In this document: positions 2,849 through 24,945 of the stretch, piece by piece
How the letters are laid out: every line of letters begins with the position of its first letter
How positions within the stretch are numbered: the stretch's first letter is position 1
Translations under genes and position numbers: made by a program
Origin: a virus
Lineage: Duplodnaviria > Heunggongvirae > Uroviricota > Caudoviricetes
Length of the DNA: 34,039 nt
IMG/VR virus record: IMGVR_UViG_2617270939_000002
Direction: 5' to 3' (one strand)
Notes under the pieces: model-generated
Told to the model about the DNA's origin: nothing
What the model saw: only the letters and a program-made list of their open reading frames with translations
Database searches by the model: none

Positions 2849-3268
2849 TCAGTTGTTGCCTGAGGGCATATCCATATCCAGAAGAATGCCGTCTACACCC
2901 GGATCGCTGATTGCCTGCTGGAGGCGGGCGATGATGCCGTTGTACCCCGTCATCCCCGAATACGGCTGGAGTGAGCGGGTTTTACTGACCAGCGTCCCGG
3001 AAACAGGCAGCACCGCGATACCATCAGTAACCTGGTAGCTTCGCGCTGGTTTTGGGCCCATGTCCTCATCATCACCAAAGAGAGCCAGCGGTTCAGCCAT
3101 CTGCTCTGCACCTAGCGTCACGCCCGACACGGTGTCGGTCAGACGGGTGATACCTAACTGACCAGCGAGAGCACAAAAGAAAACCCGCGCATAGGCGGGT
3201 TCAAGTAAAAGCGGCTCATTGAAGGCCATACTGGCAATGTGCGGGAGATTACGCAGCTCTGGCGTCAT
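2849..3268 (-). pseudogene. Truncated S49-family prohead protease (lambda gpC N-terminal about 140 aa only)
   Basis: MTPELRNLPHIASMAFNEPLLLEPAYARVFFCALAGQLGI...YSGMTGYNGIIARLQQAISDPGVDGILLDMD matches gpC N-terminus; ORF stops long before expected length and abuts gpU. Confidence 0.75.
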
Positions 3269-4947: not shown

Positions 4948-5332
4948 GGAATATTTCCTTTTAGGCGTGAGCCTGTCGCACGGCAATGCCGCCCGAGAGG
5001 TAAACGCAACCTAACGGCATCACCCAGGCTCACTACTGAAAGACTCTCTTTGATGTGCGCGTGCGATGCGCGTAGAAGACTGATTTATCAACCTGTCTTT
5101 ATATCAGGATTCATTACCTGACTATTTGTGGGTAAAGTTCGTAGTGCGCTGATCGTGCAAAATGATTTTAGTTGGGAACAGTTCGCAACTCTGTCCCATA
5201 AAAATCAGCATATTCCCATCTATCCCATATCCAGCGCATTGACCATCGGGATACTGAAGGGAGATTCCATCATCTCTTAGAAAGATCACCATCTCTTTTG
5301 TTTCAATTTGCATATAGCTACCTGGAGGATTT

Positions 5333-5947
5333 ATGAATGCAAGGATTTTCATGGACTATTACCATGAGATTGATTTTCCATCTTTATTCGCGAGAGCAGT
5401 GGAAAGCGATGACGATGTGGGTACTACATTGCGCATTCACCTACTTTGTGAGCGCATGGTCGAAGCATGGATATGCGCATGCTGTGACTGCCAAGATCTC
5501 TTTGGAAGAGATAAAAACAAACTTTTAATCGAATGTAATACTAAAATATCCATGGCGGGAAACCTGGGAATCCCCCCGGAACTTATGAAATCACTTAAAA
5601 CCATCAACTCAATGCGTAATGACCTTGCACACAATCCATCAATACAAAGCATTGCTGATTCAAGGATCCAGAGCCTGAAGGATACTCTGACTGAATACTT
5701 TAAACAGCATCCAACGGAACCCAGCATGGAAGAATCAAAACTGGGTATTTTTAACGCCGAGAATCAATTAACCGAAGAAGTTTCCTTAGATAGTGACAGT
5801 TCAAAAAACAGACTTAAGTTAATCTTGCTGTTCAGCAAGTTAATGCAGGCGTTAATGCAATTAGTTGCAGCTAATCATAATGGGCGCTGGGATAACCAAT
5901 TTAGCCAATTCGTTTACCATGTGACCATGAACGCAACAAAGAGATAA
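5333..5947 (+). CDS. HEPN-like (Rx4H motif) protein, candidate abortive-infection/toxin RNase moron; alternative start at 5351
   Basis: Motif SMRNDLAHN (R-x4-H) in a predicted helical protein; opposite strand to surrounding phage genes; AT-rich; followed by hairpin terminators. Confidence 0.6.
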   Translation: MNARIFMDYYHEIDFPSLFARAVESDDDVGTTLRIHLLCERMVEAWICACCDCQDLFGRDKNKLLIECNTKISMAGNLGIPPELMKSLKTINSMRNDLAHNPSIQSIADSRIQSLKDTLTEYFKQHPTEPSMEESKLGIFNAENQLTEEVSLDSDSSKNRLKLILLFSKLMQALMQLVAANHNGRWDNQFSQFVYHVTMNATKR

Positions 5948-5983
5948 ATCCAAGCCCGTTTTGTACGGGCTGTTGCATTATCA

Positions 5984-6014
5984 CAGGCACTCAGTGAATG
6001 CCTGCTGTAATGCC
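5984..6014. repeat. 31-bp direct repeat copy 1 (contains hairpin CAGGCA-N9-TGCCTG)
   Basis: caggcactcagtgaatgcctgctgtaatgcc; second copy at 6371-6401 with one mismatch. Confidence 0.6.
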
Positions 6015-6030
6015 CGTCGTGATGACCATT

Positions 6031-6092
6031 AAAAAAGCCACTCGAAAGTGGCCTTTGTGATGGCAATAAAAAACCGCCCGTAGGCGGTTATA
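6031..6092. terminator. Two tandem hairpins flanked by A/T runs (bidirectional rho-independent terminators)
   Basis: gccact-cgaa-agtggc (6037-6052) and ccgcc-cgta-ggcgg (6074-6087), each with A-run upstream and T-rich downstream. Confidence 0.5.
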
Positions 6093-6108
6093 TTCAGCAG
6101 GTCGCATG

Positions 6109-6273
6109 TTATCTGTGAATGACAAACAGCGATTTACATTTAGGGCAAAGTAACGCCTGTTGTTGGCGTACTTTCGTGGTCGAGTGTGTGGATTTATGTC
6201 CGCATATCGGGCACATGACAGTCGTATTGGCTGCAAGCCCAACACGCTGCATTGCATAATCGAAAAATGACAT
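6109..6273 (-). CDS. Small zinc-ribbon protein (54 aa, two CxxC pairs)
   Basis: Own translation MSFFDYAMQRVGLAANTTVMCPICGHKSTHSTTKVRQQQALLCPKCKSLFVIHR; ATG at 6273; terminators immediately downstream; below the 60 aa ORF-track cutoff. Confidence 0.45.
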   Translation of the reverse strand: MSFFDYAMQRVGLAANTTVMCPICGHKSTHSTTKVRQQQALLCPKCKSLFVIHR

Positions 6274-6370
6274 GGTGGTTAACCTTTCAATGAATGGGGC
6301 TTATTATACCATGCATAGCTCAATTATTAATCAATCATCATCGCATGCTTGATGCCATTTAACTTTGTCG

Positions 6371-6401
6371 CAGGCACTCAGTGAATGTCTGCTGTAATGC
6401 C
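6371..6401. repeat. 31-bp direct repeat copy 2
   Basis: caggcactcagtgaatgtctgctgtaatgcc. Confidence 0.6.
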
Positions 6402-6714
6402 TGCTCAGCCAAGTTGAAGCACACCGTGTTCTTTTGAATCAGAGAATGCAACAAACCCAGTGTATTCGGGGATAGTGTTCCGTCATCAGCATCAAATGCT
6501 GAAATGGTTGCGTGAAGAATCAAAAATGCTCCAAATCCCGCGCCGCTGCTGCCCCTCGATGGTCAGAATCGTCAAGGAGGACCCGTTAAAAGGTAAGCAG
6601 AAAATCTGTGGTTAGAAGTGAAGGCTTTGACAACGTTCTAAATTTTATGACAGAAATAAAAAAGCATTACCTTTCAAGATAATGCTTTTTCACTCGAACT
6701 GAGTCTTATAACAA

Positions 6715-6888
6715 TTAGATTAATGTGATTTTAATATCATAGCTTTCAAGCCCAGTCATTTTTTCACGAGCATTAAACTGGATATCGGAAACTTCTTTTC
6801 CTGTCTTTTTTTTGAGTTCAATAATTTTTTTTGTGATGAATTCAGAAATATCCGCTTCAGTTTTTCTTTTTAAATCTTCGACGTTCAT
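6715..6888 (-). CDS. GnsA/GnsB-family small protein (57 aa)
   Basis: Own translation MNVEDLKRKTEADISEFITKKIIELKKKTGKEVSDIQFNAREKMTGLESYDIKITLI closely resembles E. coli GnsA/GnsB; RBS GAGAGGT. Confidence 0.8.
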   Translation of the reverse strand: MNVEDLKRKTEADISEFITKKIIELKKKTGKEVSDIQFNAREKMTGLESYDIKITLI

Positions 6889-7092
6889 TGTTTACCTCTC
6901 TTGATCTCTAACGTATCAACGCCAGGCATGTTACATTCCCCGTAGAGCACTTGTATAAGCGCTGATATGTTTAAAAGATAGAATAGAAAGACTCAATTAT
7001 CAATAGTTTGCAGTACAATCTTCATGCAAAAGAGCTCGCGACCACACAAACCACTGTACTAAAATCCGGGTCGGTCACGAAACAACCAGATC

Positions 7093-7323
7093 TCATTTCA
7101 AAAGCTTCGAGGCTGCCTCGAGGATCTCTTCTGAACTGACATCACGATCAGAGGCTACATAAACTATTTTATGGTCTCCTGTCAGAGATGGAAATCCCGC
7201 TGACATCACGGGTAGGTGTGCTTTTTCCCCATTGGGAAACTCACGCATTATCGTAGTAATACCTTTCATTACGGTTACAACAACTGCTGGTTCTGCATTA
7301 AAAAAAACGATGACTTTTTTCAT
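7093..7323 (-). CDS. Hypothetical small protein (76 aa)
   Basis: ORF with MKK start; weak RBS; no family recognised. Confidence 0.4.
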   Translation of the reverse strand: MKKVIVFFNAEPAVVVTVMKGITTIMREFPNGEKAHLPVMSAGFPSLTGDHKIVYVASDRDVSSEEILEAASKLLK

Positions 7324-7396
7324 AATTTTACCGTGATGTCTCTTACAGAGATTGTCGGTTCAGCATACAAAAAAGGCTCCATAAGGAGCCTGAAAT

Positions 7397-7612
7397 TTAT
7401 TTTCTGAATTCTAACGAAGACTGACCAGAACGAATGTACAGTGCAATATTATCAAATGTAATCATTGTTGATTTGCAAAAAATACATTTTGCTCCGAAAG
7501 GATTTTTTTCAGTAACATCAAAGTTTGACGTTCGGTACTGAGATCCGTGGCAACACGGACATCTGAAGTGAATATTATTAGTAATAACAGTTACCTTATA
7601 CAGCCACGACAT
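7397..7612 (-). CDS. Hypothetical zinc-ribbon-like small protein (71 aa; CPCC...CIFC)
   Basis: ATG at 7612; two Cys pairs about 22 residues apart; overlaps 3' end of csp gene by 17 nt; weak RBS. Confidence 0.3.
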
Positions 7613-7808
7613 TAACTGCCGTGGGGCCTTTAGGTCCCTGTTCAACACTAAATTCAACTTCCTGATTCTCATTCAACGTCTTGAAATCATTACTCTGGAT
7701 AGCAGAGAAGTGAACAAACACATCTTTACTACCATCTTTTGGAGTGATAAAACCAAAACCTTTTTCAGGATTAAACCATTTAACTAAACCAGTCATTTTA
7801 TTAGACAT
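7596..7808 (-). CDS. Cold-shock protein, CspA family (CspB-like)
   Basis: [53 protein letters not shown]... ; long AT-rich upstream leader typical of csp genes. Confidence 0.9.
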
Positions 7809-8240
7809 AAACATTACCTTTATTGAGTAAGCCCTTGGGCAGAATGGTCCGAAAAAAAATTATCAGAGAGAAAAGCTAACAAGGAAATCTCAACAGGAAC
7901 AAGGAATAAAATTATTACAGCGACTGCTTCAGATAAATTCGTTACAAACCAGACATTCATTAACGCATGATTAACCAGACATAGCAAGGTTTAGTTTTGT
8001 AAGTAAATCTCAGTGGGTTTTGATCTTAAAAATTAATTTAAATAGCTTAAATCGAAAATTATGTCATGCTGCGTAAGACCTTTATCTATCACCCTAAGTT
8101 GTCAGGGATTTTGACTCAAGGAAGAGTCGTATTTCCTTCATAGTAAAAATTCACAAATTTATCCACGAAAACCGTCAACATCTTAATTTATAGAGCTATT
8201 ATTTTTCCTCTACGGTTCATTGTTAGTATTTTTACGGACT

Positions 8241-8345
8241 CATAAATCCGCTCACATGTCATTCCTGCTCGGTAGTTTTCATCAGCGCGTTCAGCATGGT
8301 ATCGAGCTTCTTCTGCCAGGCTTCCTGGCATGTCTACGAGCATTG
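8241..8345 (-). pseudogene. Orphan 3' fragment duplicated from the gene at 9196..9669 (about 105 bp, about 80 percent identical to 9237..9341)
   Basis: Direct sequence comparison of the two stretches (ctcaca(t/c)gtcattcctgc...atcgagcttcttctgc...). Confidence 0.55.
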
Positions 8346-8380
8346 TGGTGTCATGGCGGATGGAAAGTTATGTTGATTCG

Positions 8381-8584
8381 TTAGTTATCGAGCTGTAGAA
8401 CGCTATGCTCTAGCGACTCGGAATAGGCAATCAGCCCGGTGTACTCAGGGATAACCTCGCCATCATCCGCTTCGAACTCAGGGATTGTTCCGGTAGTGAT
8501 GGTATATTGTGGCTGGCCATCTTCTTTTGCGAAGGCAGCCAGGTCTTCAATCTGCTTAGCTGTAAGAACTACTGTAATGCTCAT
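8381..8584 (-). CDS. Hypothetical acidic small protein (67 aa)
   Basis: ORF only; SD very close to ATG. Confidence 0.35.
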   Translation of the reverse strand: MSITVVLTAKQIEDLAAFAKEDGQPQYTITTGTIPEFEADDGEVIPEYTGLIAYSESLEHSVLQLDN

Positions 8585-8968: not shown

Positions 8969-9199
8969 TTAAGAGAATGTAACACCCAGAGTGGAGAGGT
9001 TTTTTTTCTTCTCCACAATACGGCGATCAAGTTCAGCCACTGCATGCGGGCGTATGGCATCAAGAAAGGCGTTATCCTGATAGGTAGACTGGATTGTCAC
9101 ACCAAGTCCGGCACCACTTTCCAGTATGCTTTTCTGAAGTTGTAGTTCTTTTATATCGTTATTGAGGTAATACGCTTCACTTAGGTTTTCTGCGTTCAT
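8969..9199 (-). CDS. Hypothetical phage protein (76 aa)
   Basis: ATGA start/stop overlap with upstream gene suggests translational coupling. Confidence 0.5.
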
Positions 9200-9669
9200 C
9201 TTCTAACCCTGTTGTTGTTTGACTGCCTCACTGAGTCGTAAATGCGCTCACACGTCATTCCTGCCCGGTAGCTTTCGTCAGATCGCTCAGCATAATATCG
9301 AGCTTCTTCTGCAAGGCGTCCGAGCATGTCGGCGAGCACTGCGGCGTCGGCTCCGGCTGTTTTGCTTCTGACGGCAGTGGCAAGATCTGCGGTGTGCTTT
9401 GCGGCGTCCAGGCGAGTGGCAAGCTTTGTTGCTTCGGTACGCAGCTGGTTAACAGTGGCAGACAGGCCAGCAGCAGTGGCAGCGGATTTACCGACAATAA
9501 TTGCCCAGTCACTCAGGCTTAACCCTGCAATTCTGTCGGCCAACATCCAGGACACCTCTTTTGCTGTTTTAGCTGTTTCGGCATATGCCTTCGCTGATAC
9601 ACCGCAGCCGGTCAGCGTGGTTCCTGTTCCATATGAAAGTCTGCTGTAAATGGTGCTCATTCTGGTCAT
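9196..9669 (-). CDS. Hypothetical phage protein (157 aa)
   Basis: ATG at 9669 preceded by GGAGGTGAGG; Ala/Thr-rich helical protein. Confidence 0.6.
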
Positions 9670-9912
9670 AGCCTCACCTCCGATTATTCGGATGGCGCTG
9701 TGTGTTTGAAAAGGGTCAGGCTTCACGGGCTGGATTTATCAACAAAGCACGTAGCGGATGATTCCCGTGAGCCTGAAATAGAAAAGGCCACGCAAATGCG
9801 CAGCCTGTAACCAGAAATCAATATTGTCTTTACATCAATTTTTCTTAAGGTTAAATTCTTCTGACAAGTTGATGAAAGACAACTTGAATATTAGCTATTT
9901 GTTCTCTGTTAT

Positions 9913-10836: not shown

Positions 10837-11037
10837 TCACACAAACTGGTCATCACCTGGAAGCTGCATTGTGATTTTCACAATGGAGGTCTTAAAGCGC
10901 TGTTTTAGCTTAGTGAACTGTGAGGCCCAATCCATGCCCATGCCGTCAATGATCGGCTTCATTGGGGTATACGGCTCACCATTGCGATTCACAACATAGA
11001 GTGCATTTCCGTGGAACGGGACGGTAATTGTATTCAT
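10837..11037 (-). pseudogene. Antirepressor N-terminal domain fragment (P22 AR N-term/Ant-like), truncated after about 66 aa
   Basis: MNTITVPFHGNALYVVNRNGEPYTPMKPIIDGMGMDWASQFTKLKQRF resembles phage antirepressor N-terminal domains; much shorter than typical. Confidence 0.45.
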
Positions 11038-11318
11038 AGCGTTTTGCCTTACTTTGAGATGAACCTTTGCCGCACAGGAGATCAGCCCGTCGAGGCTCGC
11101 CAGCACTAACTGACTCCTCAACGGCTCATTCCAAAAGGTTGGGTTCGACGTGATTGAATGCGCTGCGGTGCGCGGTGAAATGCAGATACAAAAAAGCCCC
11201 GGTATTAAACCGAGGCTTATAATTCTTTCTCTTTTTCAGAGAATGCGGATTAAAGAACGTGCTTCATTGCTGGTTTCATCACAGCTTGGCACATATTTAC
11301 TACTTTCATTTCTCATTT

Positions 11319-11540
11319 TCAATTTATTTTTTTTGCACAGTTAGCCTGCACTGATTTATTGTGCACCAATATGTCCCGCTTCGTCTGCTTATCCAGCACG
11401 GCAATATCGTGTTCAGTGAGGTAGATAATGTCCACCCAGTCACAGGCTGTGTCCGTTAATTCAGGTTTTGCGGGTAAAGTTTTCGCGCAACTCACGGTCA
11501 ACATCGTCATCAGGAAGATGATTAACAGTTTGCTGTACAT
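11319..11540 (-). CDS. Lipoprotein, putative o-spanin (Rz1-like), overlapping 3' end of upstream gene in another frame
   Basis: Signal peptide MYSKLLIIFLMTMLTVSC with Cys lipobox; overlap architecture typical of spanin pairs; position downstream of endolysin. Confidence 0.45.
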   Translation of the reverse strand: MYSKLLIIFLMTMLTVSCAKTLPAKPELTDTACDWVDIIYLTEHDIAVLDKQTKRDILVHNKSVQANCAKKIN

Positions 11541-11730
11541 CCCTGGCTCCTTTTGTTGTCTCTACCCGGCGTTCAGCAACAGCTTCAGTAGCTGTTGCAC
11601 GTTCTTCAGTGCGCTGCTGATCGGCTTTGGCTTCCGCTTTGCTGGTGCCGCGTGAATGACCAATGCCAAAAGCACCAGCGATAGCTGCCATTATCAGGGC
11701 AGCAATACCGACGATTGTTTCTAATCCCAT
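11461..11730 (-). CDS. Small N-terminally membrane-anchored charged protein, putative i-spanin (Rz-like, short)
   Basis: MGLETIVGIAALIMAAIAGAFGIG TM segment then charged coil; GAGGT RBS; immediately after endolysin. Confidence 0.45.
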   Translation of the reverse strand: MGLETIVGIAALIMAAIAGAFGIGHSRGTSKAEAKADQQRTEERATATEAVAERRVETTKGARDVQQTVNHLPDDDVDRELRENFTRKT

Positions 11731-11737
11731 AGTGACC

Positions 11738-12367
11738 TCACACCAGCACAGACTTCGCCAGGTTAAACAGCGCGCGGCGTTTATCCAGCCCGTTACGTCC
11801 GCCATTGATAAGCAGCGTGACGCGCTCCACATCGCCTGAATGGAGCAGGCATCCGTGCGAGACGTAGAACCATGCGGCGGAGCGCGCAGCGTATTCATCT
11901 CGTTCCAGTAGTTCTGGATACGAAACCAGATCCAGTTTGAGAGCCTGGCCGCAACTGCGATAGTTGCTAAGCCCGGTGATTTGCTTAAGGCCTCGGCCGC
12001 GATATTTCCAGCCATCACCAGCAACCTGGTTGCCCAGGTTCTTTTTGCCCCACTCACCGCCGTAAACCAGATTGGCTATCGCTTTCTGATTTGCCGGTTG
12101 CGTTGCCGTTCTGCCGAGTGCGGCGGCCTGCTGCGCAGTAATGCGATGCTTGCCGAACGTAGGTACCAGGTTTTCTGCCGCATAGTTCAGGTTTTCCACC
12201 AGCCGGGTGAAACCGCCGGACTCATGGCCCATCTGCGCGATAAACATGGCCTGATCGAGCGGCGCGGTTATGCCGAATTCCTTCACTGCAGCATCGATAT
12301 GCGAAAACCAGCGCGAAGCGAGCCCGGCGCTAATGCCAGCCGCCTTTTGAAATTGTGATTGGTTCAC
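11738..12367 (-). CDS. Phage endolysin, glycoside hydrolase family 19 (chitinase-like lysozyme); GTG start (alternative ATG at 12415)
   Basis: MFIAQMGHESGGFTRLVENLNYAAE...GRGLKQITGLSNY motifs; GTGA overlap with upstream gene stop. Confidence 0.8.
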   Translation of the reverse strand: MNQSQFQKAAGISAGLASRWFSHIDAAVKEFGITAPLDQAMFIAQMGHESGGFTRLVENLNYAAENLVPTFGKHRITAQQAAALGRTATQPANQKAIANLVYGGEWGKKNLGNQVAGDGWKYRGRGLKQITGLSNYRSCGQALKLDLVSYPELLERDEYAARSAAWFYVSHGCLLHSGDVERVTLLINGGRNGLDKRRALFNLAKSVLV

Positions 12368-12645
12368 GTTGTGCTTTCCCCTGCTATTCTTGCGATGTTG
12401 CCACGTGCTCGCCATACAGCTATGCAGACAACAAGGTTGACGACCAACTCTCCGTAGTCGACCTGCACGTAATCACCATGCCAGATGCGGAAAGCGGTAA
12501 ACGCTGGAGCGAGGATCAGCCCATAGGCCAGAAACTCCATCAGACGGCGGCGCCGTAAGCTCCGCTTCCTGAAGAACATCAGGCGTATGGTGATGAGGAT
12601 GCATGCAACAGCGTTAATGTTCAGGATCAGTGTTTGCCACGTCAT
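12364..12645 (-). CDS. Small two-TM membrane protein in lysis cassette (holin partner/antiholin candidate)
   Basis: Hydrophobic segments plus RKRSLRRRR basic patch; ATGA coupling to the upstream holin-like gene. Confidence 0.5.
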   Translation of the reverse strand: MTWQTLILNINAVACILITIRLMFFRKRSLRRRRLMEFLAYGLILAPAFTAFRIWHGDYVQVDYGELVVNLVVCIAVWRARGNIARIAGESTT

Positions 12646-13046
12646 TCTTCCCCCTTCAATCCGGGTAAGTCTCCTGTCTTCGACCGTTTGAGGATGCGAG
12701 CCAGGATGGTGACAGAAACCGATGAAGCCAGCAGGGCACCCATAGCTGGAGATACCTTCACGGAAACTGGAGGAGAAAGGTGACTTAATGCCGCATTGAT
12801 TAGCGCAGCGATGATTTCAGATGCTGTTCCGGCGCAGTAGACTCCACCAATGAATGAGATGAGCGCGAACAGTATCTGCTTCCAGATTTTGTGGTCTTCA
12901 CTGCTCAGGACATAAAGAGCAGCCCCGGCAAGTGAGCAAAGCATTACAGCGGGTGTCGCTTCTGGAAACATCGTCGCGAAGGTGATTCCGGTAGTGCCGG
13001 CGGCCACGCCTGCCGTTACCGTTGCAGATATCGGTTCTGCGGACAT
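12642..13046 (-). CDS. Putative holin (134 aa, multi-TM with charged C-terminal tail)
   Basis: ATG at 13046 with GAGGGGG RBS; TM-rich with C-terminal KRSKTGDLPGLKGEE; first large gene of lysis cassette. Confidence 0.55.
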   Translation of the reverse strand: MSAEPISATVTAGVAAGTTGITFATMFPEATPAVMLCSLAGAALYVLSSEDHKIWKQILFALISFIGGVYCAGTASEIIAALINAALSHLSPPVSVKVSPAMGALLASSVSVTILARILKRSKTGDLPGLKGEE

Positions 13047-13156
13047 TTTGCCCCCTCTTATTGCTGTTGATCCTCTCAGAAGGTTGAGGGGAAACAAAAA
13101 AGGCCACCGTGAGGTGGCCTATATATGATTGAAATTTTTGATTTGGTAAGGCTTGA

Positions 13157-13351
13157 TCAGACCGGCAATGCCTTCGGCTTGCCCATGTGATATGTAACAA
13201 GGCTGCTTTTGCTGCCATCTTCCCAGACTGTAGAGCTCTCGGTGATCTTCAAAATCACCCAGCCTTTAGAAAGGCCCAAATTGACTTGCTCCACATCCTC
13301 TACCGTCCGTACTTCCTGAATTTTACTCAACAAGTTTTCATCTGCGCTCAT
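13157..13351 (-). CDS. Hypothetical small protein (64 aa), first ORF downstream of tR'-like terminator
   Basis: ATG at 13351 with GAGGG RBS. Confidence 0.4.
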   Translation of the reverse strand: MSADENLLSKIQEVRTVEDVEQVNLGLSKGWVILKITESSTVWEDGSKSSLVTYHMGKPKALPV

Positions 13352-13413
13352 CAACTGACCCTCAGTTAAAAAACACAACATAACAAACGCATTGAAGAAA
13401 AACCTTGCTGGAA

Positions 13414-13442
13414 ATAAAAAAACCCGCGCTGAGGCGGGTTTG
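13414..13442 (-). terminator. Rho-independent terminator on minus strand upstream of lysis genes (lambda tR'-like position)
   Basis: Minus-strand hairpin aaacccgc-ctcagc-gcgggttt followed by TTTTTTTATTT. Confidence 0.5.
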
Positions 13443-13829
13443 ATGTCGTGTAGGCGTAATATCCCACGATGGAAAGCATACAGGACATTTTTATGCAAAG
13501 TCAACACTAACGTGCAAAAAAGTGTCGCTACCGTAACCCGTACCAGACCCGCCACACATTCGCCACCAGACACATTAGCCAGGGCGTAAACCTTTTCTGG
13601 CTTGCCGGGCAGATGGGGCATAAAGGGCCGGAAATGCTGTTCCGCAATTACGGTAAATACCTGGCTGAATACGACGGGAAAACCGCCATTTCAGCAGCTC
13701 TGTAGCGTCGTGAGTATTTCAAAATGTTGGACGGAATCAGGACGTTAGAGGGACCACGATATGCACGTAAAATGCACTTGAGGCCTTTCAAAAAAGACAA
13801 AACATTAATATTCAATAGGTTAAGCATTA

Positions 13830-13864
13830 TTCGGACACGGGTTCAACTCCCGCCAGCTCCACCA
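13830..13864 (+). other. 3'-terminal fragment of tmRNA (ssrA)-like sequence ending in CCA; att core, not an intact RNA gene
   Basis: TTCGGACACGGGTTCAACTCCCGCCAGCTCCACCA matches the E. coli ssrA 3' end as I recall it (one difference); upstream sequence does not match the ssrA body. Confidence 0.7.
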
Positions 13865-13899
13865 AATATTGATGTACTGAAGTTCAGTAAAGTCTACTA

Positions 13900-13932
13900 A
13901 GCCCGCACAGCACAAGCTCTGCGGGCTTTTTT
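13900..13932 (+). terminator. Rho-independent terminator following the ssrA-like 3' end
   Basis: agcccgca-N12-tgcgggct followed by TTTTTT. Confidence 0.65.
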
Positions 13933-14030
13933 ACGTCTATTGTAGTCTAGTGAGAATTGCTGAGAACTACGAGTTATGGCACCCTGAATGGGACCCACGA
14001 AGATGGGTCCTAAAATCGAGGGTCCCAAAC

Positions 14031-15260
14031 ATGGCCAAAATCGCTAAGAAGCTCACTGACACTGAAATCAAAAGCACCAAACCTGCCGAAAAAGAGGTTA
14101 ACCTTTTTGACGGCGATGGTTTGCTGTTGCGAATCGCTCCCCTGGCGAAGGGAGGGAAGAAAAATTGGTATTTCAGATATGCAGTGCCTGTGACCAAAAA
14201 GCGAACTAAGGTGAGCTTAGGAACCTATCCTCACCTTACACTTGCGAAGGCACGAGCTTTACGTGATGAATACTTGTCGTTGCTTACAAATGGTATAGAC
14301 CCCCAAGTTCATAACAACCAAAAAGCCAATGCACTGAAAGATGCCACGGAACATACATTTCAAGCAGTAGCCAAGAAGTGGCTTGATGAGAAAGTCAAAA
14401 CGTCAGGCATCTCCCAAGATCATGCTAACGACATCTGGCGAAGCCTAGAGAGAAATATCTTTTCCACATTGGGTGATACCCCAATTAAGGAGATTCGCCC
14501 TAAAATGCTTAAACAGCATTTAGAACCCATAGAAAAACGAGGTGTCCTTGAAACACTTCGCCGCATCATATCCCGCCTGAATGAAATTTTCCGCTATGCA
14601 GCAACAGAAGAACTCATAGAATTCAACCCGGCAGACAACCTGGGGCAACGGTTCAGCAAGCCAAAAAAACAGAATATGCCAGCATTACCCCCTTCCGAAC
14701 TCCCTCGCTTCTTGGTTGCTCTAAACAATGCTTCTATCCGTTTGGAAACAAGGCTACTGATTGAGTGGCAACTTCTCACATGGGTTCGCCCAGGTGAAGC
14801 TGTTCGCACAAGATGGTCAGATATTGATATTGAAACTGGCATGTGGAACATCCCGGCGGAGTTTATGAAAATGAAGAAGCCTCACAAAGTTCCACTGAGC
14901 AAAGAAGCTTTGCGAGTTTTGGATTTAATGAAAGTCATCAGCGGGCATAGAGAGTGGGTGTTCCCCAGTATCAAAGCTCCACTCAATCACATGCATGAAC
15001 AAACAGCTAATGCGGCCATAATCCGTATGGGTTTCGGAGGTGAGCTTGTAGCTCACGGTATGCGATCCATTGCTAGAACGGCTGCTGAGGAGTCTGGCAA
15101 GTTTAGGACTGATGTCTTAGAAGCCGCCCTTGCCCACTCGAAGAAAGATGAAATAATTGCAGCCTACAATCGTGCAGAGTATCTCACTGAACGGGTGGTT
15201 CTCATGCAATGGTGGAGTGACTATGTTTCGTCTCAAAAATGCAAAGTTATTGCCGCATAA
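14031..15260 (+). CDS. Tyrosine integrase, P4 family (IntA-like), 409 aa
   Basis: MAKIAKKLTDTEIKSTKPAEKEVNLFDGDGLLL...WYFRY... N-terminus and C-terminal HGMRS...LAHS...Y catalytic region; adjacent to ssrA-type att. Confidence 0.9.
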   Translation: MAKIAKKLTDTEIKSTKPAEKEVNLFDGDGLLLRIAPLAKGGKKNWYFRYAVPVTKKRTKVSLGTYPHLTLAKARALRDEYLSLLTNGIDPQVHNNQKANALKDATEHTFQAVAKKWLDEKVKTSGISQDHANDIWRSLERNIFSTLGDTPIKEIRPKMLKQHLEPIEKRGVLETLRRIISRLNEIFRYAATEELIEFNPADNLGQRFSKPKKQNMPALPPSELPRFLVALNNASIRLETRLLIEWQLLTWVRPGEAVRTRWSDIDIETGMWNIPAEFMKMKKPHKVPLSKEALRVLDLMKVISGHREWVFPSIKAPLNHMHEQTANAAIIRMGFGGELVAHGMRSIARTAAEESGKFRTDVLEAALAHSKKDEIIAAYNRAEYLTERVVLMQWWSDYVSSQKCKVIAA

Positions 15261-15542
15261 CTCTCCCATGATGGATTAACTATCTTGATTTAGTTAAAGA
15301 ATTAATAATCACACCATTAACCTATGTGGACTAAGCATAGCCATTTACAAATGGGGACATTGAGTCCACATAACGAAAGCTGTCGGTCATATCAGCTAAA
15401 TAATTCACATCTCTTCTCGATTATCATACACCTCGAAGATCTACCAAATTCGCTCTAATCAATGATAAAACAGTTGAATTCGGTTAAAATTTGATCAATT
15501 TTATCCTCTACATTGTATTGAATCATCCATGAGGTTTCGTGC

Positions 15543-17099
15543 ATGGCTAGCGAAAATGACAAAAATCATAGAGTTAGGGTCGCGCAGTACTTGAGGATGT
15601 CTACCGACCATCAGCAATATTCTTTACATAATCAGTCCGAATATATCAAAGATTATGCTGAAAAGAACAATATGGAAATCGCTTATACCTACGATGATGC
15701 AGGTAAGAGCGGAGTCAGTATCGTAGGCAGGCATTCTTTGCAGCAGTTACTTAGCGATGTAGAACAAAAGAAAATAGATATACAGGCTGTATTATTTTAT
15801 GATGTGAGCCGTTTTGGTCGTTTTCAAAATAGTGATGAAGCGGCATATTATTCCTTTCTATTTGAGAGAAATGGTGTAGATCTTATATATTGTTCCGAAC
15901 CTATACCCACTAAAGATTTCCCTTTAGAGTCCTCTGTTATACTGAATATAAAAAGATCTAGTGCTGCATATCACAGCAGGAATTTATCTGAAAAGGTATT
16001 TATAGGGCAAGTAAATTTAATAAAGCTTGGTTATCATCAAGGCGGTATGGCTGGTTATGGGCTGAGACGTCTTTTAGTAGACGAAAATGGCATAGCTAAA
16101 GAAATATTGAGTTTCCGCAAAAGAAAGAGTATTCAAACAGATAGGGTAATATTAATTCCGGGACCAAAAAATGAAATAAAAATTGTAAATAGAATATATG
16201 ATCTCTTTATAGATAATAACGTCCCAGAATTCATTATTGCTGAGAGATTAAATGAACAGAACATACCTGCAGAAAATGGAACATTATGGACTCGTGCAAA
16301 AATACATCAAATTTTGACAAATGAAAAATATATTGGAAACAACATATATAACAAAACCTCATCTAAATTAAAAAGTAGGCTTGTAAAAAACCCCAAACAT
16401 GAATGGGTTAGATGTGACAAGGCATATAAACCTATTATTTCAAAGAAAAAATACAATAAAGCTCAAGAAATAATTCAGCTCCGATCCATTCATTTGACTA
16501 ATGAAGATCTATTAGAAAAACTAAAACAAAAATTAGAATCTAATGGAAAACTATCAGGCTTTATCATTGATGAAGATGATACAGGCCCTTCATCTTCTGT
16601 TTATAGAACCCGATTTGGTGGTCTTTTAAGAGCATATACTTTGATTGGTTATAAGCCAGAACATGATTACAGCTATCTCAAAATAAATGAAGCACTAAGA
16701 TCATTTCACTCAGAGATAATTGAGGATTTTAAGGGTGAAATTTTAAAAAGTAACTGTCATATAGACGAGTATAAATATGCCCCAATGCTTTACATCAATG
16801 ATGAGTTTTTAATTTCCGTCCTTGTTACTAAATGCATACATATGAAATCAGGTAAACTTAGATGGAAAGTCCGGTTTGATAACTCACAGAAAGCAGACAT
16901 AACAATTGTTATACGAATGAATTCACAAAATATTTCACCTCTTGATTTTTATATCATACCAAAGATTGAAAACGAATATAATAAAATGTGCATGACGGAA
17001 ACAAACAACATTCGATTAGATCTCTATAGATTTGATAATCTTGATAAACTTCTACAAATTATTACTCGCATGAAAGTGAGGGAACTATATGCTGCCTGA
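15543..17099 (+). CDS. Large serine recombinase (resolvase/invertase catalytic domain plus recombinase and zinc-ribbon domains)
   Basis: VAQYLRMSTDHQ catalytic serine motif near N-terminus; 518 aa; AT-rich. Confidence 0.85.
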   Translation: MASENDKNHRVRVAQYLRMSTDHQQYSLHNQSEYIKDYAEKNNMEIAYTYDDAGKSGVSIVGRHSLQQLLSDVEQKKIDIQAVLFYDVSRFGRFQNSDEAAYYSFLFERNGVDLIYCSEPIPTKDFPLESSVILNIKRSSAAYHSRNLSEKVFIGQVNLIKLGYHQGGMAGYGLRRLLVDENGIAKEILSFRKRKSIQTDRVILIPGPKNEIKIVNRIYDLFIDNNVPEFIIAERLNEQNIPAENGTLWTRAKIHQILTNEKYIGNNIYNKTSSKLKSRLVKNPKHEWVRCDKAYKPIISKKKYNKAQEIIQLRSIHLTNEDLLEKLKQKLESNGKLSGFIIDEDDTGPSSSVYRTRFGGLLRAYTLIGYKPEHDYSYLKINEALRSFHSEIIEDFKGEILKSNCHIDEYKYAPMLYINDEFLISVLVTKCIHMKSGKLRWKVRFDNSQKADITIVIRMNSQNISPLDFYIIPKIENEYNKMCMTETNNIRLDLYRFDNLDKLLQIITRMKVRELYAA

Positions 17100-17985
17100 A
17101 AAAAATGAATTCCCAATAATTCAAATTGAGATTGCAAAAATAAAATTTCTTAACCCACGAACAAGAAATAAGTTAGTGCATGAAGAAATAAAGGAAAGCA
17201 TAAAAAAAAGAGGATTAAGCAAGCCTATAAGCGTAAGAGCTATTGATGAAGGCGATTTCAAATATGCTTTAATTTGTGGTCAAGGGAGAATAGAGGCTCT
17301 CGTTGCATTAGGTGAAACTATTATTCCAGCAATTATAAGAGATGTATCAGAAGAAGATGCTTACGTTATGAGTTTAGTTGAAAACATTGCAAGGAGAAGA
17401 CCACGTTCTAATGAGTTATTACAGGTGATTAAAGACATGAAAATCAGAGGACTTTCAGACTCCGAAATAAGTGAGATTACTGGATATTCATCGAACTGGG
17501 TGAGCAGTATTAATATGCTACTTGATAAGGGAGAGCATAAACTTCTCTCAGCAGTCGAACGGGGTAATTTGCCTCTGTATCTCGCAGTGCAATTTGCAAG
17601 ATGTGAAACTGAGGAAGCACAAGATATTCTTACCGAAGCATATGATAAAAAATTAATAAAAAGTCGGGACATTATAAAGATAAAACACATTCTAAATCAA
17701 AGAACAGTTGGGAATAAAGGTGCAAAAGCAGCCGGATTTTATTATCACAAACCATCAAAAAGGATGACTGCAGAGGAGTTGATTGAGCTTTATGAAAATA
17801 GTATCGCTGAACATAAATCTGTTTATAACAACTCAAAATTCATAAAAACCAACCTACTAATAGTAAATGAGATTTTTAACATCATAATGATGAATAAAAG
17901 CTTTCAACATATACTTGAACAAGAGAATCTTTCAGAACTACCATCTCAGATATTAACCCCAATAAACAAAGAGGTATTAAAATGA
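17089..17985 (+). CDS. ParB-like N-terminal domain protein with HTH (paralog 1)
   Basis: ISVRAIDEGDFKYALICGQGRIEALVALGETIIPAIIRDVSEEDAYVMSLVENIARR matches ParB/Spo0J N-domain pattern; 11-nt overlap with recombinase. Confidence 0.7.
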   Translation: MLPEKNEFPIIQIEIAKIKFLNPRTRNKLVHEEIKESIKKRGLSKPISVRAIDEGDFKYALICGQGRIEALVALGETIIPAIIRDVSEEDAYVMSLVENIARRRPRSNELLQVIKDMKIRGLSDSEISEITGYSSNWVSSINMLLDKGEHKLLSAVERGNLPLYLAVQFARCETEEAQDILTEAYDKKLIKSRDIIKIKHILNQRTVGNKGAKAAGFYYHKPSKRMTAEELIELYENSIAEHKSVYNNSKFIKTNLLIVNEIFNIIMMNKSFQHILEQENLSELPSQILTPINKEVLK

Positions 17986-18878
17986 TTCAGATACGTTTTG
18001 GCGATAATTTTATTTACCTGGAAACTAATAAGTTAATTCCATCTAAGGAATTATTAGAAAACGTAAAGCGAAGCCATAAATATCATCAAATAGTTACCTC
18101 TATCGAAAGCTTAGGTATTATTGAACCAATAATAGTATTCTATGACAAAGATAAAGATGTCACTAAGATACTTGATGGCCATTTAAGGGTTGAGGCTTTA
18201 AAAGACTTAGGTATAGAAAAAGCTCCATGTATACTTTCGAGCATAGATGATGCTTTCACTCCTAACAAACAAGTGAATCATATAAATGTAGTTGAAGAAC
18301 ATAGAATGATAATTAAGTCTCTGGCAAAAGTATCAATTGAAAAACTTAGTGCTGCTTTGGGCATATCTGTTGATGCCATAAAAGATAAAGCGAATGTGAT
18401 GAACGGCATAGATCCAAGTGTAATTGCGAAACTTTCTGATAAACCTATACCTAAGGCTACATTTGACGTTTTGAGGAAAATGAAGCCAATTCGCCAAATT
18501 GAAGCAGTCGGTACAATGATTAATTTTGATAATTATAGTAAAAAATTTGCAATGAGCATCTTGGATGCAACACCGGCATCGATGATAGTAAATAAAGGGA
18601 AAAACACTCCCTATAAAAAGGATATAAAAAAAACCATACTTCGTCTGGAACAAGAAATGGCAACAACTTCGGAAGAAACGAAAAAGCTTCAAACCGAGTA
18701 TGGTTCAGATATGTTGAAATTCGTTATAATCCAGTCATATATTAATAAATTACTTGGCAATTCTAAAGTTCTTCATTGGTTCTTAGAAAACGAGGTTGAT
18801 TATCTTAATGAGTTAAAAAGAATTTCTAGAATAAATTCTTTGGATGATAAGACTCTTACTGAAAACAGCAAGTCATAG
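17982..18878 (+). CDS. ParB-like N-terminal domain protein with HTH (paralog 2)
   Basis: IIEPIIVFYDKDKDVTKILDGHLRVEALKDLGIEKAPCIL...; ATGA overlap with paralog 1. Confidence 0.65.
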   Translation: MIQIRFGDNFIYLETNKLIPSKELLENVKRSHKYHQIVTSIESLGIIEPIIVFYDKDKDVTKILDGHLRVEALKDLGIEKAPCILSSIDDAFTPNKQVNHINVVEEHRMIIKSLAKVSIEKLSAALGISVDAIKDKANVMNGIDPSVIAKLSDKPIPKATFDVLRKMKPIRQIEAVGTMINFDNYSKKFAMSILDATPASMIVNKGKNTPYKKDIKKTILRLEQEMATTSEETKKLQTEYGSDMLKFVIIQSYINKLLGNSKVLHWFLENEVDYLNELKRISRINSLDDKTLTENSKS

Positions 18879-19532
18879 TCATGTTTTATATAGCCTAAAT
18901 AAACCAAGAAGTATACTTACACAACGACCTTCACGCCGAAGAAGCTGTCAGATACGCCAGCAACCAAAGCATTACGTTTAAGTGTCAGTCATTGATACGA
19001 AGGGATAACTGCGTATCAGCAGCCGGACATTGAGTCGAATAAAGGCTGGTAGAGAGGGACAGTTCTGTGTCACCGGGAGATTCGTCAGAAACATCAGCGG
19101 CAGAACAGATGAACCAGCAATTGGTAGTGCACAGAAAACTCTCCAGTATTTAATTATTCAACTTAACACTAAAAAAAATCACATATTTAATATCATAATT
19201 TTTCTTTGGTCTACGTATGCGAGAGTTATTGTGGCTTTAACCGGGTATTAGGAGTCGTTTCAGATAAAAGATGTTCTTCGATTCGACTGGACTTGGTAAT
19301 AGCAATAAGTAATCGTTAATATTGAAGGACGAAAGGCTACTTCAAAACAAAGTAACCTTTCCAATATTCCCATCTATGGGACAAGTGGTACATTAACTGC
19401 ACATAGTGCAGGATACATATGACATAAAACTTTTTATTTATGGCATACATTATAAATAACTTGTATTTTATGAATGTCAATAGGTTCTTGTTTAATACTT
19501 TTAAAATAATTAATTGATTGTTTTTATTATAG

Positions 19533-19552
19533 CTTCGCTTGTACAAGCGAAG
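19533..19552. repeat. Perfect 9-bp inverted repeat around a central TA dinucleotide (CTTCGCTTG-TA-CAAGCGAAG)
   Basis: Read directly; the 2-nt spacer argues for a DNA-level protein-binding or crossover site rather than an RNA hairpin. Confidence 0.6.
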
Positions 19553-19587
19553 ATCCTATTGTTCTTGAATGAATAATGCCAATTATA

Positions 19588-19631
19588 AGAGAAGCAAGGG
19601 CTAACTCTGCGAAGCCGCTGCGCTTGCTTCT
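19588..19631. other. GC-rich stem-loop (10-bp perfect stem gagaagcaag/cttgcttctc, 24-nt structured loop) inside an AT-rich ORF-free gap
   Basis: Read directly; followed on plus strand by a C/T-rich tract. Confidence 0.5.
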
Positions 19632-20612
19632 CCGGTTTCCCCTTGCTTTTCTTCCCTTCGGTTAGAAAAGAAAAACCTGGTCTTTCTCTTTCAATGTCTG
19701 CACATTTACTACAACAGATTAGACAATCGCAACTATTTATTTTATATGGAAAACTAGTGCTTAAATTGCAGCTCTCATTTTTATCAATCATTTTGCATAA
19801 GATAAATTTAAGTTTATATACCAAGGCATCCCGTTAGTTTTTACACGTAGGTAAACTAATAGTCAAAATCGAACTTTGAATTGTAGATTCTTTTAATTTA
19901 ACTCTATCCATCCGGTTAGAGGTAAAGGGAGGTTCATTTCAAGATATCATTGAACACAGTTCCAGATTAATATTATCAAAGAATTGAAAAAGATAATTAT
20001 TATTGCAATCCGTTAATGAGTCCACTTCAATTTTCCGTTCTTCTTACAGCGTTCTGAACAGTTAAACATATGATAGCTATTTAAAACCTTCGGTAATCTT
20101 ATCCAATACGGACTTGTCTGGTTTGATAATTACCAGAATCACACTATGCTCTTCAGTCTAATTTGTCAGTGATAAGGAGATCCGACCTATCGAACTTGCG
20201 TCATTTCCTAAATTTAGTGATTATAAATGTGGTTATCTATGGTCTTGTTGTGAAGATGTAGGCTGGAATTATCATGACGAACTGCAGCCTACATAAGCCG
20301 ACAGTACGGCTTTGATCGAATCATTAACTCTTTTATCATCTCAGGAACTGTGCAGACATTCCAGTTCAATTTTATAACGTTCAGTAAAAATTTAAAAAGG
20401 TGACAGCCCATGATCTCAATTGCAGACAATCAACCGTCTTTGATGATCATGGGTATATAAGTTTAACAAGATGTCTTCATCTCATGTGATTAAAATATAT
20501 AACAACACTAATTTAAAAATCGATTCTTAACTCTTCCAAAATATCACCCTTTATATTTCATTAAATTAATATCATAACTACACATACTAATTAGATAGTG
20601 TGTTAATTAAAT

Positions 20613-22739
20613 TCATCTAACTGACTCAATGATCTTTTGTTCTATAACTCGCCCACCTTGCTTTCCAGACAAAGGACCAATTAGTACTTTAAAGTCGGCA
20701 TAGTCATCTGCCTCAGGCCTATGCTCTATAATAACAATTGCATTGAATAATTTAGATTTTTGATATATAAAATTCAGCACCTTCGAAGCCGTCTCAGAAT
20801 CAAGTCCAGCGACAGGTTCATCAATAAACAATATTTTGTTTGTTTTTCTGGACTTAGATAGTATTTCACATAATTTTATTCTACGCATTTCACCACCTGA
20901 CAGGGACTGCGTTTTTCTATTAAGTTTCAAATGTGATATTCCAAGATAATGGATAGTTTCAAGAATAGTATTAATCTTAGTGTTATTAAAAAAAGAGCTT
21001 AACTCTTTCAACTCAGTATCATATACATCTATTATATTCATACCATTAATCTGAGACTTTACTTCATCTATATTGTGGTCAAACAGTTTACCCTCACATT
21101 TATGACATGATATGTAGATATCCTTTTCAAAACCCCTTTCATATTTTATCACGCCCTTACCTTCACAAACTTTACATCCACCAAGTTTGTTTGGAAGGAA
21201 ATACTCTATATCTAATTTTGTTATATCGGAGAAAAATTCTGCAATTAATTTATTCAAATCCGTGATAGTTGCGACAGTAGAACGTCCTGTATATGATGAC
21301 AATTTTTGGCTTATATAAATCGAATCGGTAAGACTACAAATAGCTTTAGCTAAAGATGATTTCCCCGATCCGGAGATTCCAGAAAAAACAGTAACACACT
21401 CTTTAGGGATACGTATATTTTGATTAATGATGTTATTTTTATTAAGCCCTTCAAAATAATAGTAATCAGATATATTATTTTTGGGATTGAGGTTCCTTTG
21501 CGGCTGAATTTTTTCTTTTTCACAAATTTCCCCACCAGAAGAACCAGCGTATTTACCAACATGGATTTGCTGATCAGCAAGATCTATGAAATACTGCGAG
21601 TGCTCTACTAAAATAACTGTGTTTTTTTCTGATAATTTTTTTAGCTTTTGAAAGATAACTTCAAAATCGACAGGGTTAATTTGGGATGATATTTCATCGA
21701 TAACAATCAGAATACCTGTTGTATTAGATGTTAAAAGCCTGCTGAAAATAAGTTTTTGTATTTCCCCCCCAGAAAGACTGGGAATTGAACGAGACAAATT
21801 TAAATATCCCAATCCCATATTATTTATTGAGGACAACACTCTAATTAATACTGAGTCACCTATAGTTTTTTTCAGGGTATTACATAATTCAGATATAGGA
21901 GATAGTAAAAATTCATCAAATGTAAATCCTAAAACATCAAGTTGGGCTGTTTCTTGGTTAATTCTGCTTCCATTACAAAATGAGCAATTTTCTTCCTTTT
22001 TATACTTTGAATTGTTTTGGCTCCGTCCTATATTCGAATTAGCAAAAGACATTACGCCTTTATAAAAAGCTCTTCTTTGCTTCGTTTTTCCTTTGTGTTT
22101 AAATCTAAAAGATAATTTCTCAGCGCTTTCTCCATATAGTATTAGGTTTTTCTTTTCAAGTGATAGTGAATCAAAAGTATCATCTACTTTTATATTATTT
22201 TTATCACAATAGACCATAAGTAATTGGTGATAATAATCAGATAACTCACCAGTCCGCCAACATAAAAATGGTTTTTGATCTAGTCTACATTTTTCATTAA
22301 TTAATTCAGATTCATCCACACTAACTATCTCGCCAAGGCCTAAGCAGTGTGGACATTCATTTCTATAATTGTTTATTTTTAATTTATCATAATTAGGTAC
22401 TGCTACGTTTCTTTTGATTTTTAAAGATGACAAAGCTTGAGCTATATTCAGATATGAATATATAGTTGAACGAGGGTTGTTATTTGTGTTTCTTTGTGGT
22501 ATCGCAACAGCGGGAATTAACCCACTGAAATTTGCAACTTTATAATCACTTTCATTCAAATAACCGTTTTCTACAGCATCAAACTCATCTTTGCATAATT
22601 GATAAATTGATGAAAATGCTAAAGAACTTTTTCCTGCGCCCGAACGGCCATAAATAGCGGTTATTGTATTAAATGGTATAGTAACATCTAAATTTTTTAA
22701 ATTATGGGTGGCTATTCCCTCAAAAATGATCTTATTCAT
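20613..22739 (-). CDS. UvrA-like double-ABC ATPase with zinc-finger insertions (708 aa)
   Basis: Two Walker A motifs (GRSGAGKSS, GISGSGKSS), two ABC signatures (LSGGEIQKL, LSGGEMRRI), several CxxC pairs; AGAGGA RBS; ATG overlaps upstream stop as ATGAATAA. Confidence 0.85.
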   Translation of the reverse strand: MNKIIFEGIATHNLKNLDVTIPFNTITAIYGRSGAGKSSLAFSSIYQLCKDEFDAVENGYLNESDYKVANFSGLIPAVAIPQRNTNNNPRSTIYSYLNIAQALSSLKIKRNVAVPNYDKLKINNYRNECPHCLGLGEIVSVDESELINEKCRLDQKPFLCWRTGELSDYYHQLLMVYCDKNNIKVDDTFDSLSLEKKNLILYGESAEKLSFRFKHKGKTKQRRAFYKGVMSFANSNIGRSQNNSKYKKEENCSFCNGSRINQETAQLDVLGFTFDEFLLSPISELCNTLKKTIGDSVLIRVLSSINNMGLGYLNLSRSIPSLSGGEIQKLIFSRLLTSNTTGILIVIDEISSQINPVDFEVIFQKLKKLSEKNTVILVEHSQYFIDLADQQIHVGKYAGSSGGEICEKEKIQPQRNLNPKNNISDYYYFEGLNKNNIINQNIRIPKECVTVFSGISGSGKSSLAKAICSLTDSIYISQKLSSYTGRSTVATITDLNKLIAEFFSDITKLDIEYFLPNKLGGCKVCEGKGVIKYERGFEKDIYISCHKCEGKLFDHNIDEVKSQINGMNIIDVYDTELKELSSFFNNTKINTILETIHYLGISHLKLNRKTQSLSGGEMRRIKLCEILSKSRKTNKILFIDEPVAGLDSETASKVLNFIYQKSKLFNAIVIIEHRPEADDYADFKVLIGPLSGKQGGRVIEQKIIESVR

Positions 22740-24931: not shown

Positions 24932-24945
24932 TGTATATTCCCAAT

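Follow-up and report, generated by a model that had tools for sequence, protein, structure and literature searches.

Introduction

In lambdoid phages, Q antiterminates transcription at the terminator tR', just 5' of the lysis genes. In phage lambda, Q loads at a sigma-dependent pause beside a Q-binding element (PMC7171158, PMC9191641). DLP12 (essD-rrrD-rzpD/rzoD) and Qin (essQ-rrrQ-rzpQ) are defective prophages that keep a holin-endolysin-spanin cassette, the expression of which can kill or remodel the host. Both presumably retain a Q homologue (quuD and quuQ, respectively) 5' of the cassette. The DLP12 cassette is reportedly under the control of a phage Q-type antiterminator (PMC7918800), and its S-R-Rz/Rz1 lysis genes in Escherichia coli K-12 are reported to be controlled by Q, RpoE and Hha and to affect the production of vesicles (PMC7918800). 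The present work deals with a comparable locus from a lineage of E. coli. A defective lambdoid prophage is inserted there at ssrA, and the end that carries its late control and its lysis genes lies in a stretch of 34,039 nucleotides (nt) from the virus record IMGVR_UViG_2617270939_000002 (Caudoviricetes), hereafter the window.

Unlike DLP12 and Qin, this prophage has lost Q precisely and has kept only its presumed target site; the ssrA insertion site and the gene families of the cassette differ as well. Among complete phages, the Hendrixvirinae-like lambdoids Fostie, LMessi and AsXd-1 share with the window 82-89% nt identity over the lysis cassette, in the same gene order, and 85-98% over the promoter unit. 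However, their genomes are complete, with Q, replication, immunity and structural genes, and their integrases are unrelated to the integrase fragment of the window. It is considered likely that the locus is what a deletion left of a decayed lambdoid prophage: Q and the early genes were taken, whereas a late promoter, terminators and lysis genes stayed behind, probably switched off.

The Late Promoter Unit and the Missing Q

Five Q proteins, drawn from two Pfam families, were searched against the window by tblastn, and no Q gene was found (best E = 0.15), in agreement with a preliminary description of this DNA. The interval 13443-13829, which had been proposed as the place to look for a Q remnant or a pR'-like promoter, was searched; it holds no Q remnant, and an intact pR'-like promoter lies there together with a remnant of int (Table 1). 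In a consensus scan, this promoter is the only sigma-70-like site 5' of the cassette on the minus strand within the prophage remnant, another minus-strand match, at 13966-13939, being outside the attachment-site (att) repeat. The promoter is 34 nt from the first hairpin, the predicted terminated leader RNA would be about 55 nt long, and the leader together with the first hairpin folds at about -18 kcal/mol (RNAfold). The minus-strand hairpin and T-run had been placed directly 5' of the holin gene; the hairpin is present, but a 64-codon open reading frame (ORF) and a second terminator intervene. Two intrinsic terminators in series lie between the promoter and the late genes, the second of them 55 nt 5' of the holin start codon and inside the block homologous to AsXd-1, and the consensus scan revealed no promoter-like site between both terminators and the holin gene.

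Table 1. Features of the prophage remnant, with those of the late-control and lysis end first. Positions are those of the window; strand as + or -.
Feature	Position	Strand	Evidence or remarks
pR'-like sigma-70 late promoter	13504-13475	-	-35 TTGACT, 18-nt spacer, -10 TATGCT; promoter scan
Candidate sigma-dependent pause element	13462-13471	-	CATCGT then GGGA (nATnnT + GG), in the initially transcribed region
tR'-like intrinsic terminator	13441-13412 (stem 13441-13420)	-	8-bp GC-rich stem, then TTTTATTT
Conserved 64-codon ORF, first ORF 3' of tR'	13157-13351	-	Sequence of relatives
Second terminator-like hairpin and T-run	13120-13091 (stem 13120-13101)	-	Consensus scan; -15.5 kcal/mol
Holin, 134 amino acids (aa)	12642-13046	-	Pfam Phage_holin_8 PF16931 (8e-14); PHROG 198 holin (1.5e-33)
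Second holin-family membrane protein, 93 aa	12364-12645	-	Pfam Phage_holin_3_7 PF05449 (3e-17); PHROG 217 holin
GH19 endolysin, 209 aa	11738-12367	-	Glyco_hydro_19 PF00182; PHROG 181 (1e-85); PDB 4OK7 (3e-73)
i-spanin, Rz-like, 89 aa	11461-11730	-	N-terminal transmembrane helix; PHROG 1026 (1.9e-32)
o-spanin, Rz1-like lipoprotein, 73 aa	11319-11540	-	PHROG 1275 (3.5e-30); signal peptide end LTVSC (lipobox-like)
Terminator-like hairpin and T-run 3' of the lysis cassette	11184-11218 (stem 11218-11194)	-	Consensus scan; -18.3 kcal/mol
Deletion junction	13522-13528		blastn end points 13522 (int) and 13528 (Fostie)
Tyrosine integrase 3' fragment, last 64 codons and stop	13511-13705	+	Pfam Phage_integrase, profile 128-165 of 172; PHROG 1
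att repeat, 27-nt exact copy of the ssrA (tmRNA) 3' end	13838-13864	+	Exact match to ssrA of L012, the longest found; no other copy in the window
Truncated antirepressor	10837-11037	-	P22_AR_N profile 2-59 of 115; PHROG 524 Ant 4-70 of 317
Second, destroyed lysis cassette, holin'::Rz fusion ORF	9196-9726	-	N-terminus, weak holin match; C-terminus, DUF2514, PHROG 312
Nu1 (residues 1-98)::portal C-terminus fusion	3249-3971	-	In-frame, internal deletion
Portal/protease fragment	2849-3283	-	
Tail tube V (lambda-type)::tail-fibre C-terminal domain fusion	789-2426	-	In-frame, internal deletion

As with the late unit of lambda (Q, pR', qut, tR'), the activator that is missing here is, in the relatives, a homologue of lambda Q, the promoter directly follows the Q gene, the -35 box TTGACT is common to both, and a short terminated leader precedes the lysis genes. 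The lambda promoter (NC_001416) reads TTGACT-17-TAAATT and is followed by AACGAT-GGG, to which CATCGT-GGGA in the window is parallel. In lambda, Q loads at AACGAT-GGG, the sigma-dependent pause element (PMC9191641, PMC7171158), and the element at 13462-13471 is a candidate for the same function. The alternative TGnGATATT (13466-13458) was rejected as pause element, its register not being conserved among the relatives. Apart from the loss of Q, the window differs from lambda in its leader of about 55 nt, against 194 nt (the 6S RNA) in lambda, and in the second terminator just 5' of the holin gene.

The link between this promoter unit and Q was examined in related phages. A query of 126 nt spanning promoter to terminator matched 17 phage records, of which six were inspected in addition to Fostie and AsXd-1; the eight are Fostie, AsXd-1, Fraca, SaltyDalty, CharmingMan, a Klebsiella prophage, ENT39118 and Fels-1. 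In all eight, a Q gene of 260-271 aa ends directly 5' of a promoter-leader-terminator unit equivalent to 13528-13412 in the window. The Q proteins of these relatives belong to the lambda family (Pfam PF03589; PDB lambda-Q entries 7UBM and 4MO1) and are 33% identical to lambda Q (E = 2e-38), from which a further inserted segment of about 55 aa, rich in Cys-x-x-Cys motifs, sets them apart.

When the window and the eight phages are aligned, near-invariant blocks stand out: TTGACT, the spacer TGTCCTGTA, TATGCT, and nATnnT + GG, the register of the last being kept in all nine sequences. Even the relative that diverges most keeps the spacer block TGTCCTGTA, although this is only suggestive of a Q-binding element. 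A GC-rich hairpin with a U-run comes after the conserved blocks in all eight phages. In the ungapped alignment, several terminator stems are out of register and most pairs are invariant; the stems were folded one by one, and in these separate foldings the layout is constant while the stem sequences differ.

This comparison also bears on whether the hairpin and the promoter could be chance matches and the cassette dead DNA. Six terminator-like hairpins were found in the region against 3.7 +/- 1.9 expected, which is not above chance, and promoter-like and terminator-like sites alike are no more numerous there than in shuffled sequence. Nevertheless, the first hairpin can be taken as real despite the chance-level count, because the same layout of promoter, leader, hairpin and U-run is kept directly after Q in the eight phages. 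The promoter core, moreover, follows Q in 65 further sequences from genomes or metagenomes. Chance matches are already contradicted by the comparative data, and next to no credence is given to them.

The wider scan with the promoter core found it in five species-representative genomes and 61 metagenome contigs, 60 of the contigs being assessable. A Q match ends about 45 nt 5' of the -35 box in all five genomes, one of which (L027) shows the last 45 Q codons only, the locus being cut 181 nt 5' of the promoter; in the assessable contigs, the match ends 23-50 nt 5' of the -35 box (60 of 60), and 59 are consistent with an intact Q whereas one is truncated. Over all 73 other occurrences, the phages included, the end of Q lies 17-50 nt upstream of the promoter core, and in 72 of them Q is there in full or as far as the sequence reaches. 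The retained promoter unit would be the target site of a lambda-family Q. The truncated case is the metagenome contig Ga0308162_1000505 (L058), which keeps only the last 47 or so Q codons; the sequence 5' of this remnant is unrelated and full of stop codons, and the truncation is independent. Counting the lineage of the window, Q is disrupted in two of 74 promoter occurrences. Recurrent independent loss of Q beside the promoter, a possible sign of selection, was considered and discarded, as only this one other truncated case occurs among the 73.

The 64-codon ORF, the first 3' of tR', is 98% identical in amino acids to its counterpart in an Enterobacter sichuanensis prophage (L025), and phage Fraca has a coding sequence of 64 aa annotated at this position, where the DNA is 92.8% identical. 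It has no Pfam or PHROG match and, despite the equal length and position, is not homologous to orf-64 of lambda, an identity that was rejected. A longer ORF of 154 aa (13157-13621, minus strand), called as a gene in some assemblies (e.g., L006), crosses the promoter, the leader and the terminator and is almost certainly a spurious annotation artefact.

The Probable Deletion Junction

Where the relatives carry Q, the window carries the 3' end of an integrase gene. The fragment, RYRNPYQTRHTFATRH...GHKGPEMLFRNYGKYL, keeps the HxxR...Y catalytic end and reads toward att; from 13522 on, it is 97% identical in nt to the integrase of PhiR12_5, which likewise adjoins an ssrA-type att. On the other side, homology to the phages over the cassette (Fostie, 11338-12366; AsXd-1, 11338-13121) resumes over the promoter unit and reaches 13528-13530. 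In Fostie, Q ends with ...EFEKATTY-TAA and, 17 nt on, the shared sequence GCGACACTTTTTTGCACGTTAG-GTTGACT starts; in the window, the same GCGACACTTTTTTGCACGTTAG-GTTGACT is preceded by ...GGTTACGGTA, which is antisense integrase. Phage homology stops at 13528, that is, 17 nt past the position of the Fostie Q stop codon.

The crossover shows microhomology, with GCGACAC in the window, GCGCACAC in int and GCGACAC in the phage. As both parental sequences contain GCG(C)ACAC, the event looks like an illegitimate deletion mediated by 7-8 bp of microhomology. Lysis genes, promoter, int 3' end and att follow one another as on the Fostie map, with which they are collinear once about 10 kb are taken out; in Fostie, these 10 kb hold Q, primase/helicase, the repressor region, the antirepressor, xis and the 5' five-sixths of int. 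The earlier proposal that Q had been deleted along with the whole early region is supported by the relatives that bear Q, by the junction and by this collinearity with Fostie.

Boundaries of the Remnant and Its Carriers

The prophage remnant is about 15 kb long and its right end is marked by the att repeat, 396 bp from the first hairpin, close to the 400 bp or so estimated beforehand. No tmRNA gene was found in the window with ARAGORN or Rfam; a complete ssrA lies about 1.2 kb to the left of window position 1, which corresponds to position 9590 of L012, the tmRNA being at 8029-8391 of the same sequence. The left flank runs grpE-nadK-recN-bamE-ratA-smpB-ssrA and this core flank matches an E. 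coli chromosome with 100% identity; in NZ_LR536431, it is likewise 100% identical, yet a different island occupies ssrA. The remnant has the marks of a defective prophage: att repeats at ssrA, an integrase cut to 64 codons, no repressor, replication or Q genes, and the fusion ORFs Nu1::portal and V::tail-fibre.

Through exact-protein look-ups, the locus was traced in several NCBI assemblies and in sequencing runs, while the ORF at 1-582 has no record; GCA_900450495.1 is one of the carrier assemblies. The 40-nt sequence at the junction recurs unchanged in five independent assemblies, and over 12-20 kb these show no less than 99.96% identity. The remnant context is present in 22 of the 24 longest contigs that encode the exact holin. 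The exact 40-nt junction has no match in a set of one genome per species (GTDB), in which the E. coli representative lacks the remnant, and among the complete RefSeq genomes of E. coli, none reaches 80% coverage of 11000-14000.

This distribution has to be set against the idea that the locus is a suicide switch that senses Q. An infecting or induced phage would provide the Q that fires the host copy, a decoy late operon, and premature lysis with a smaller burst would amount to an abortive-infection-like defence for which the unit is kept by selection. The deletion spares the whole promoter-terminator unit with its candidate pause element and removes Q to within 17 nt of its stop, the cassette is intact, and the remnant adjoins an island with defence-like genes, all of which would suit such a switch. 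However, the loss does not recur, since the other promoter occurrences keep Q (or all of it that is covered) save for the one independent truncation, and the junction of the window is confined to a single clonal lineage. Moreover, the phage's own lysis genes would fire simultaneously on the same signal, so that the gain in timing may be small. Selection as a Q sensor is therefore regarded as highly improbable.

The Lysis Cassette

The preliminary description had recognized a holin-like gene, a small transmembrane protein, a GH19 endolysin with a GTG start in a GTGA overlap, and an overlapped spanin-like pair, and searches of Pfam, PHROG and PDB bear out each of these assignments. The second holin-family gene is coupled to the first holin gene by an ATGA overlap, and its product could be a partner of the holin or an antiholin. 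The endolysin gene starts with GTG at 12367, overlapping the TGA stop of the previous gene as GTGA. As no hydrophobic N-terminal (signal-anchor) segment is apparent by eye, the export of the endolysin probably relies on the holin. Compared with PDB 4OK7, which we take to be the endolysin of Salmonella phage SPN1S, it aligns over its full length, a likeness that is one of sequence only. The genes of the i-spanin and the o-spanin overlap by 80 nt in different frames, the o-spanin lying over the 3' end of the i-spanin gene. Taken together, the genes make up the canonical Gram-negative set of holin, putative muralytic endolysin and two-component spanin. Unlike S-R-Rz/Rz1 of lambda, the cassette combines a Phage_holin_8 protein with a Phage_holin_3_7 protein, a GH19 endolysin and short overlapped spanins.

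Every lysis ORF has the length of its homologue in phages with complete late regions, and the holins and the endolysin are 94-100% identical to those of such phages. Thus, the holin is 100% identical to that of L008, an apparently intact phage contig that encodes Q, terminase, portal, capsid and tail genes, and 94% identical to that of AsXd-1; the second holin-family protein is 100% identical to both; the endolysin shares 97.6% identity and equal length with that of AsXd-1; and the i-spanin shares 75% identity and equal length with the Fostie homologue. A Shine-Dalgarno-like sequence is present for all of the lysis ORFs. By length and identity, the ORFs of the cassette are intact. AsXd-1 (MH178096, 5017-6797), with 88.6% DNA identity to the cassette of the remnant, is labelled as a phage of Aeromonas salmonicida; its other matches are enterobacterial and the host label looks doubtful.

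The preservation of five intact ORFs amid otherwise shredded modules could also mean that the cassette has been domesticated, with a low, regulated expression independent of Q, through read-through or a promoter responding to a host factor, that would serve envelope remodelling, vesicle formation or biofilms. The remnant is fixed in a widely sampled lineage, and the lysis module of DLP12, for which such roles have been proposed, is a precedent (PMC7918800). Nevertheless, no promoter-like site stands between the terminators and the holin, and these terminators are two in series. The full identity of the holins to those of an apparently intact phage contig fits recent acquisition as well as purifying selection, and the carriers are so nearly identical to one another that no signal of selection within the lineage is available. 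Domestication is thus held to be improbable.

Proposed Mechanism and Points against It

For the deletion of Q, the following course of events is proposed. One illegitimate recombination would have joined the 3' end of int to a point 17 nt past the Q stop, with a loss of about 10 kb that contained the lambda-family Q, the genes for immunity and replication, xis and the greater part of int. The late promoter, the candidate pause element, tR', the small ORF, the second terminator and the five-gene lysis cassette would have survived. Host RNA polymerase would start constitutively at 13504-13475, as at lambda pR', and without Q would stop at tR' after about 55 nt, yielding an abortive RNA, whereas any polymerase that escaped would stop at 13120-13091. 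The lysis genes would stay untranscribed and, the cassette being silent, the cell would tolerate an intact lethal module. The silencing of this potentially lethal module by its terminator, as had been suggested, would fit the anatomy, because two terminators stand between the sole promoter-like site and the holin and because the lysis ORFs are intact. A matching Q from a co-resident or superinfecting phage could load at the site and bring about read-through of both terminators into the lysis genes.

Several considerations weigh against this account. Intrinsic terminators are never 100% efficient. Weak or alternative-sigma promoters may lie inside 13100-13412, where a consensus scan could miss them. 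The 17 nt just 3' of the Q stop, conserved in most relatives, are lost here, and if they belong to the Q-binding site, activation in trans would fail. Furthermore, a PhiR12-like integrase and this type of Q and pR' are never found together in any database phage; hence, the junction could join two tandem prophages instead of two points of one. Finally, since a second lysis cassette lies destroyed at 9196-9726, the history of the remnant is more complex than one deletion.

The last two points lead to a possible hybrid origin, by illegitimate recombination either between two different prophages in tandem at ssrA or between a resident remnant and a phage newly entering the cell; the int fragment and the lysis cassette would then never have been part of one genome. 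Fostie and AsXd-1, which are nearest to the cassette, carry unrelated integrases and phages of the PhiR12 type lack the promoter; in addition, the remnant has an intact lysis cassette in series with a destroyed one, and two DinI genes. However, the genes follow exactly the order and orientation of one lambdoid map, there is only one internal copy of att, whereas from a tandem pair a copy between the two prophages would also be expected, and lambdoid mosaicism alone accounts for odd combinations of modules. A hybrid origin is accordingly deemed unlikely, though it is to be taken seriously; if true, it would have the same functional outcome, a late unit without Q. A deletion within a single lambdoid prophage is still the account considered likely.

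Decay of the Rest of the Prophage and Neighbouring DNA

The other modules of the remnant are damaged by internal deletions. The truncated antirepressor retains only the first half of P22_AR_N and marks the next internal deletion. In the destroyed cassette, the endolysin gene between holin' and Rz is deleted, and an ORF of 85 aa (9255-9512, minus strand) inside the holin'::Rz ORF corresponds to a RzoQ-like call in a sister assembly. In the morphogenesis region, where internal deletions have produced the fusion ORFs of Table 1, the tail-terminator gene U is intact (2434-2832). A moron block like that of the Qin prophage occupies 5100-8000 on the minus strand and includes a gene with a cold-shock domain (7596-7814), associated with a cspA thermoregulator leader (RF01766, 7537-7953) that is the only Rfam match in the window, as well as a GnsAB-family ORF (6715-6888); a YmcF-like ORF is called at the matching place in sister assemblies.

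To the right of att, an island (13950-31000) begins with a P4-type integrase (13950-15260) and carries defence-like genes. A serine recombinase (15543-17099) is encoded there, as are two ParB_N/RepB-like proteins (17089-18878) and an ABC ATPase that matches PADLOC mad3 (20613-22781). These defence-like genes also include two for ThiF/E1-like proteins (22732-24931), and a type II restriction enzyme (25611-26156) that is truncated. Positions 32738-34039, approximately, are taken up by an IS3 element.

Biological Meaning

For general biology, the locus brings nothing new, as Q-dependent late control and the lysis cassettes of cryptic prophages are already textbook matter; it is one more case of a familiar kind, a cryptic lambdoid prophage whose late operon has been orphaned. 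As such, it would provide an example, resolved to the base pair, of how prophage decay can disarm a lethal module through the loss of its activator, with the killer genes untouched. For the bacteria that carry it, the cassette would be a latent liability or a resource, since a matching lambda-family Q could fire it. A cassette triggered by Q in this way may affect the outcome of superinfection or of the induction of a co-resident prophage.

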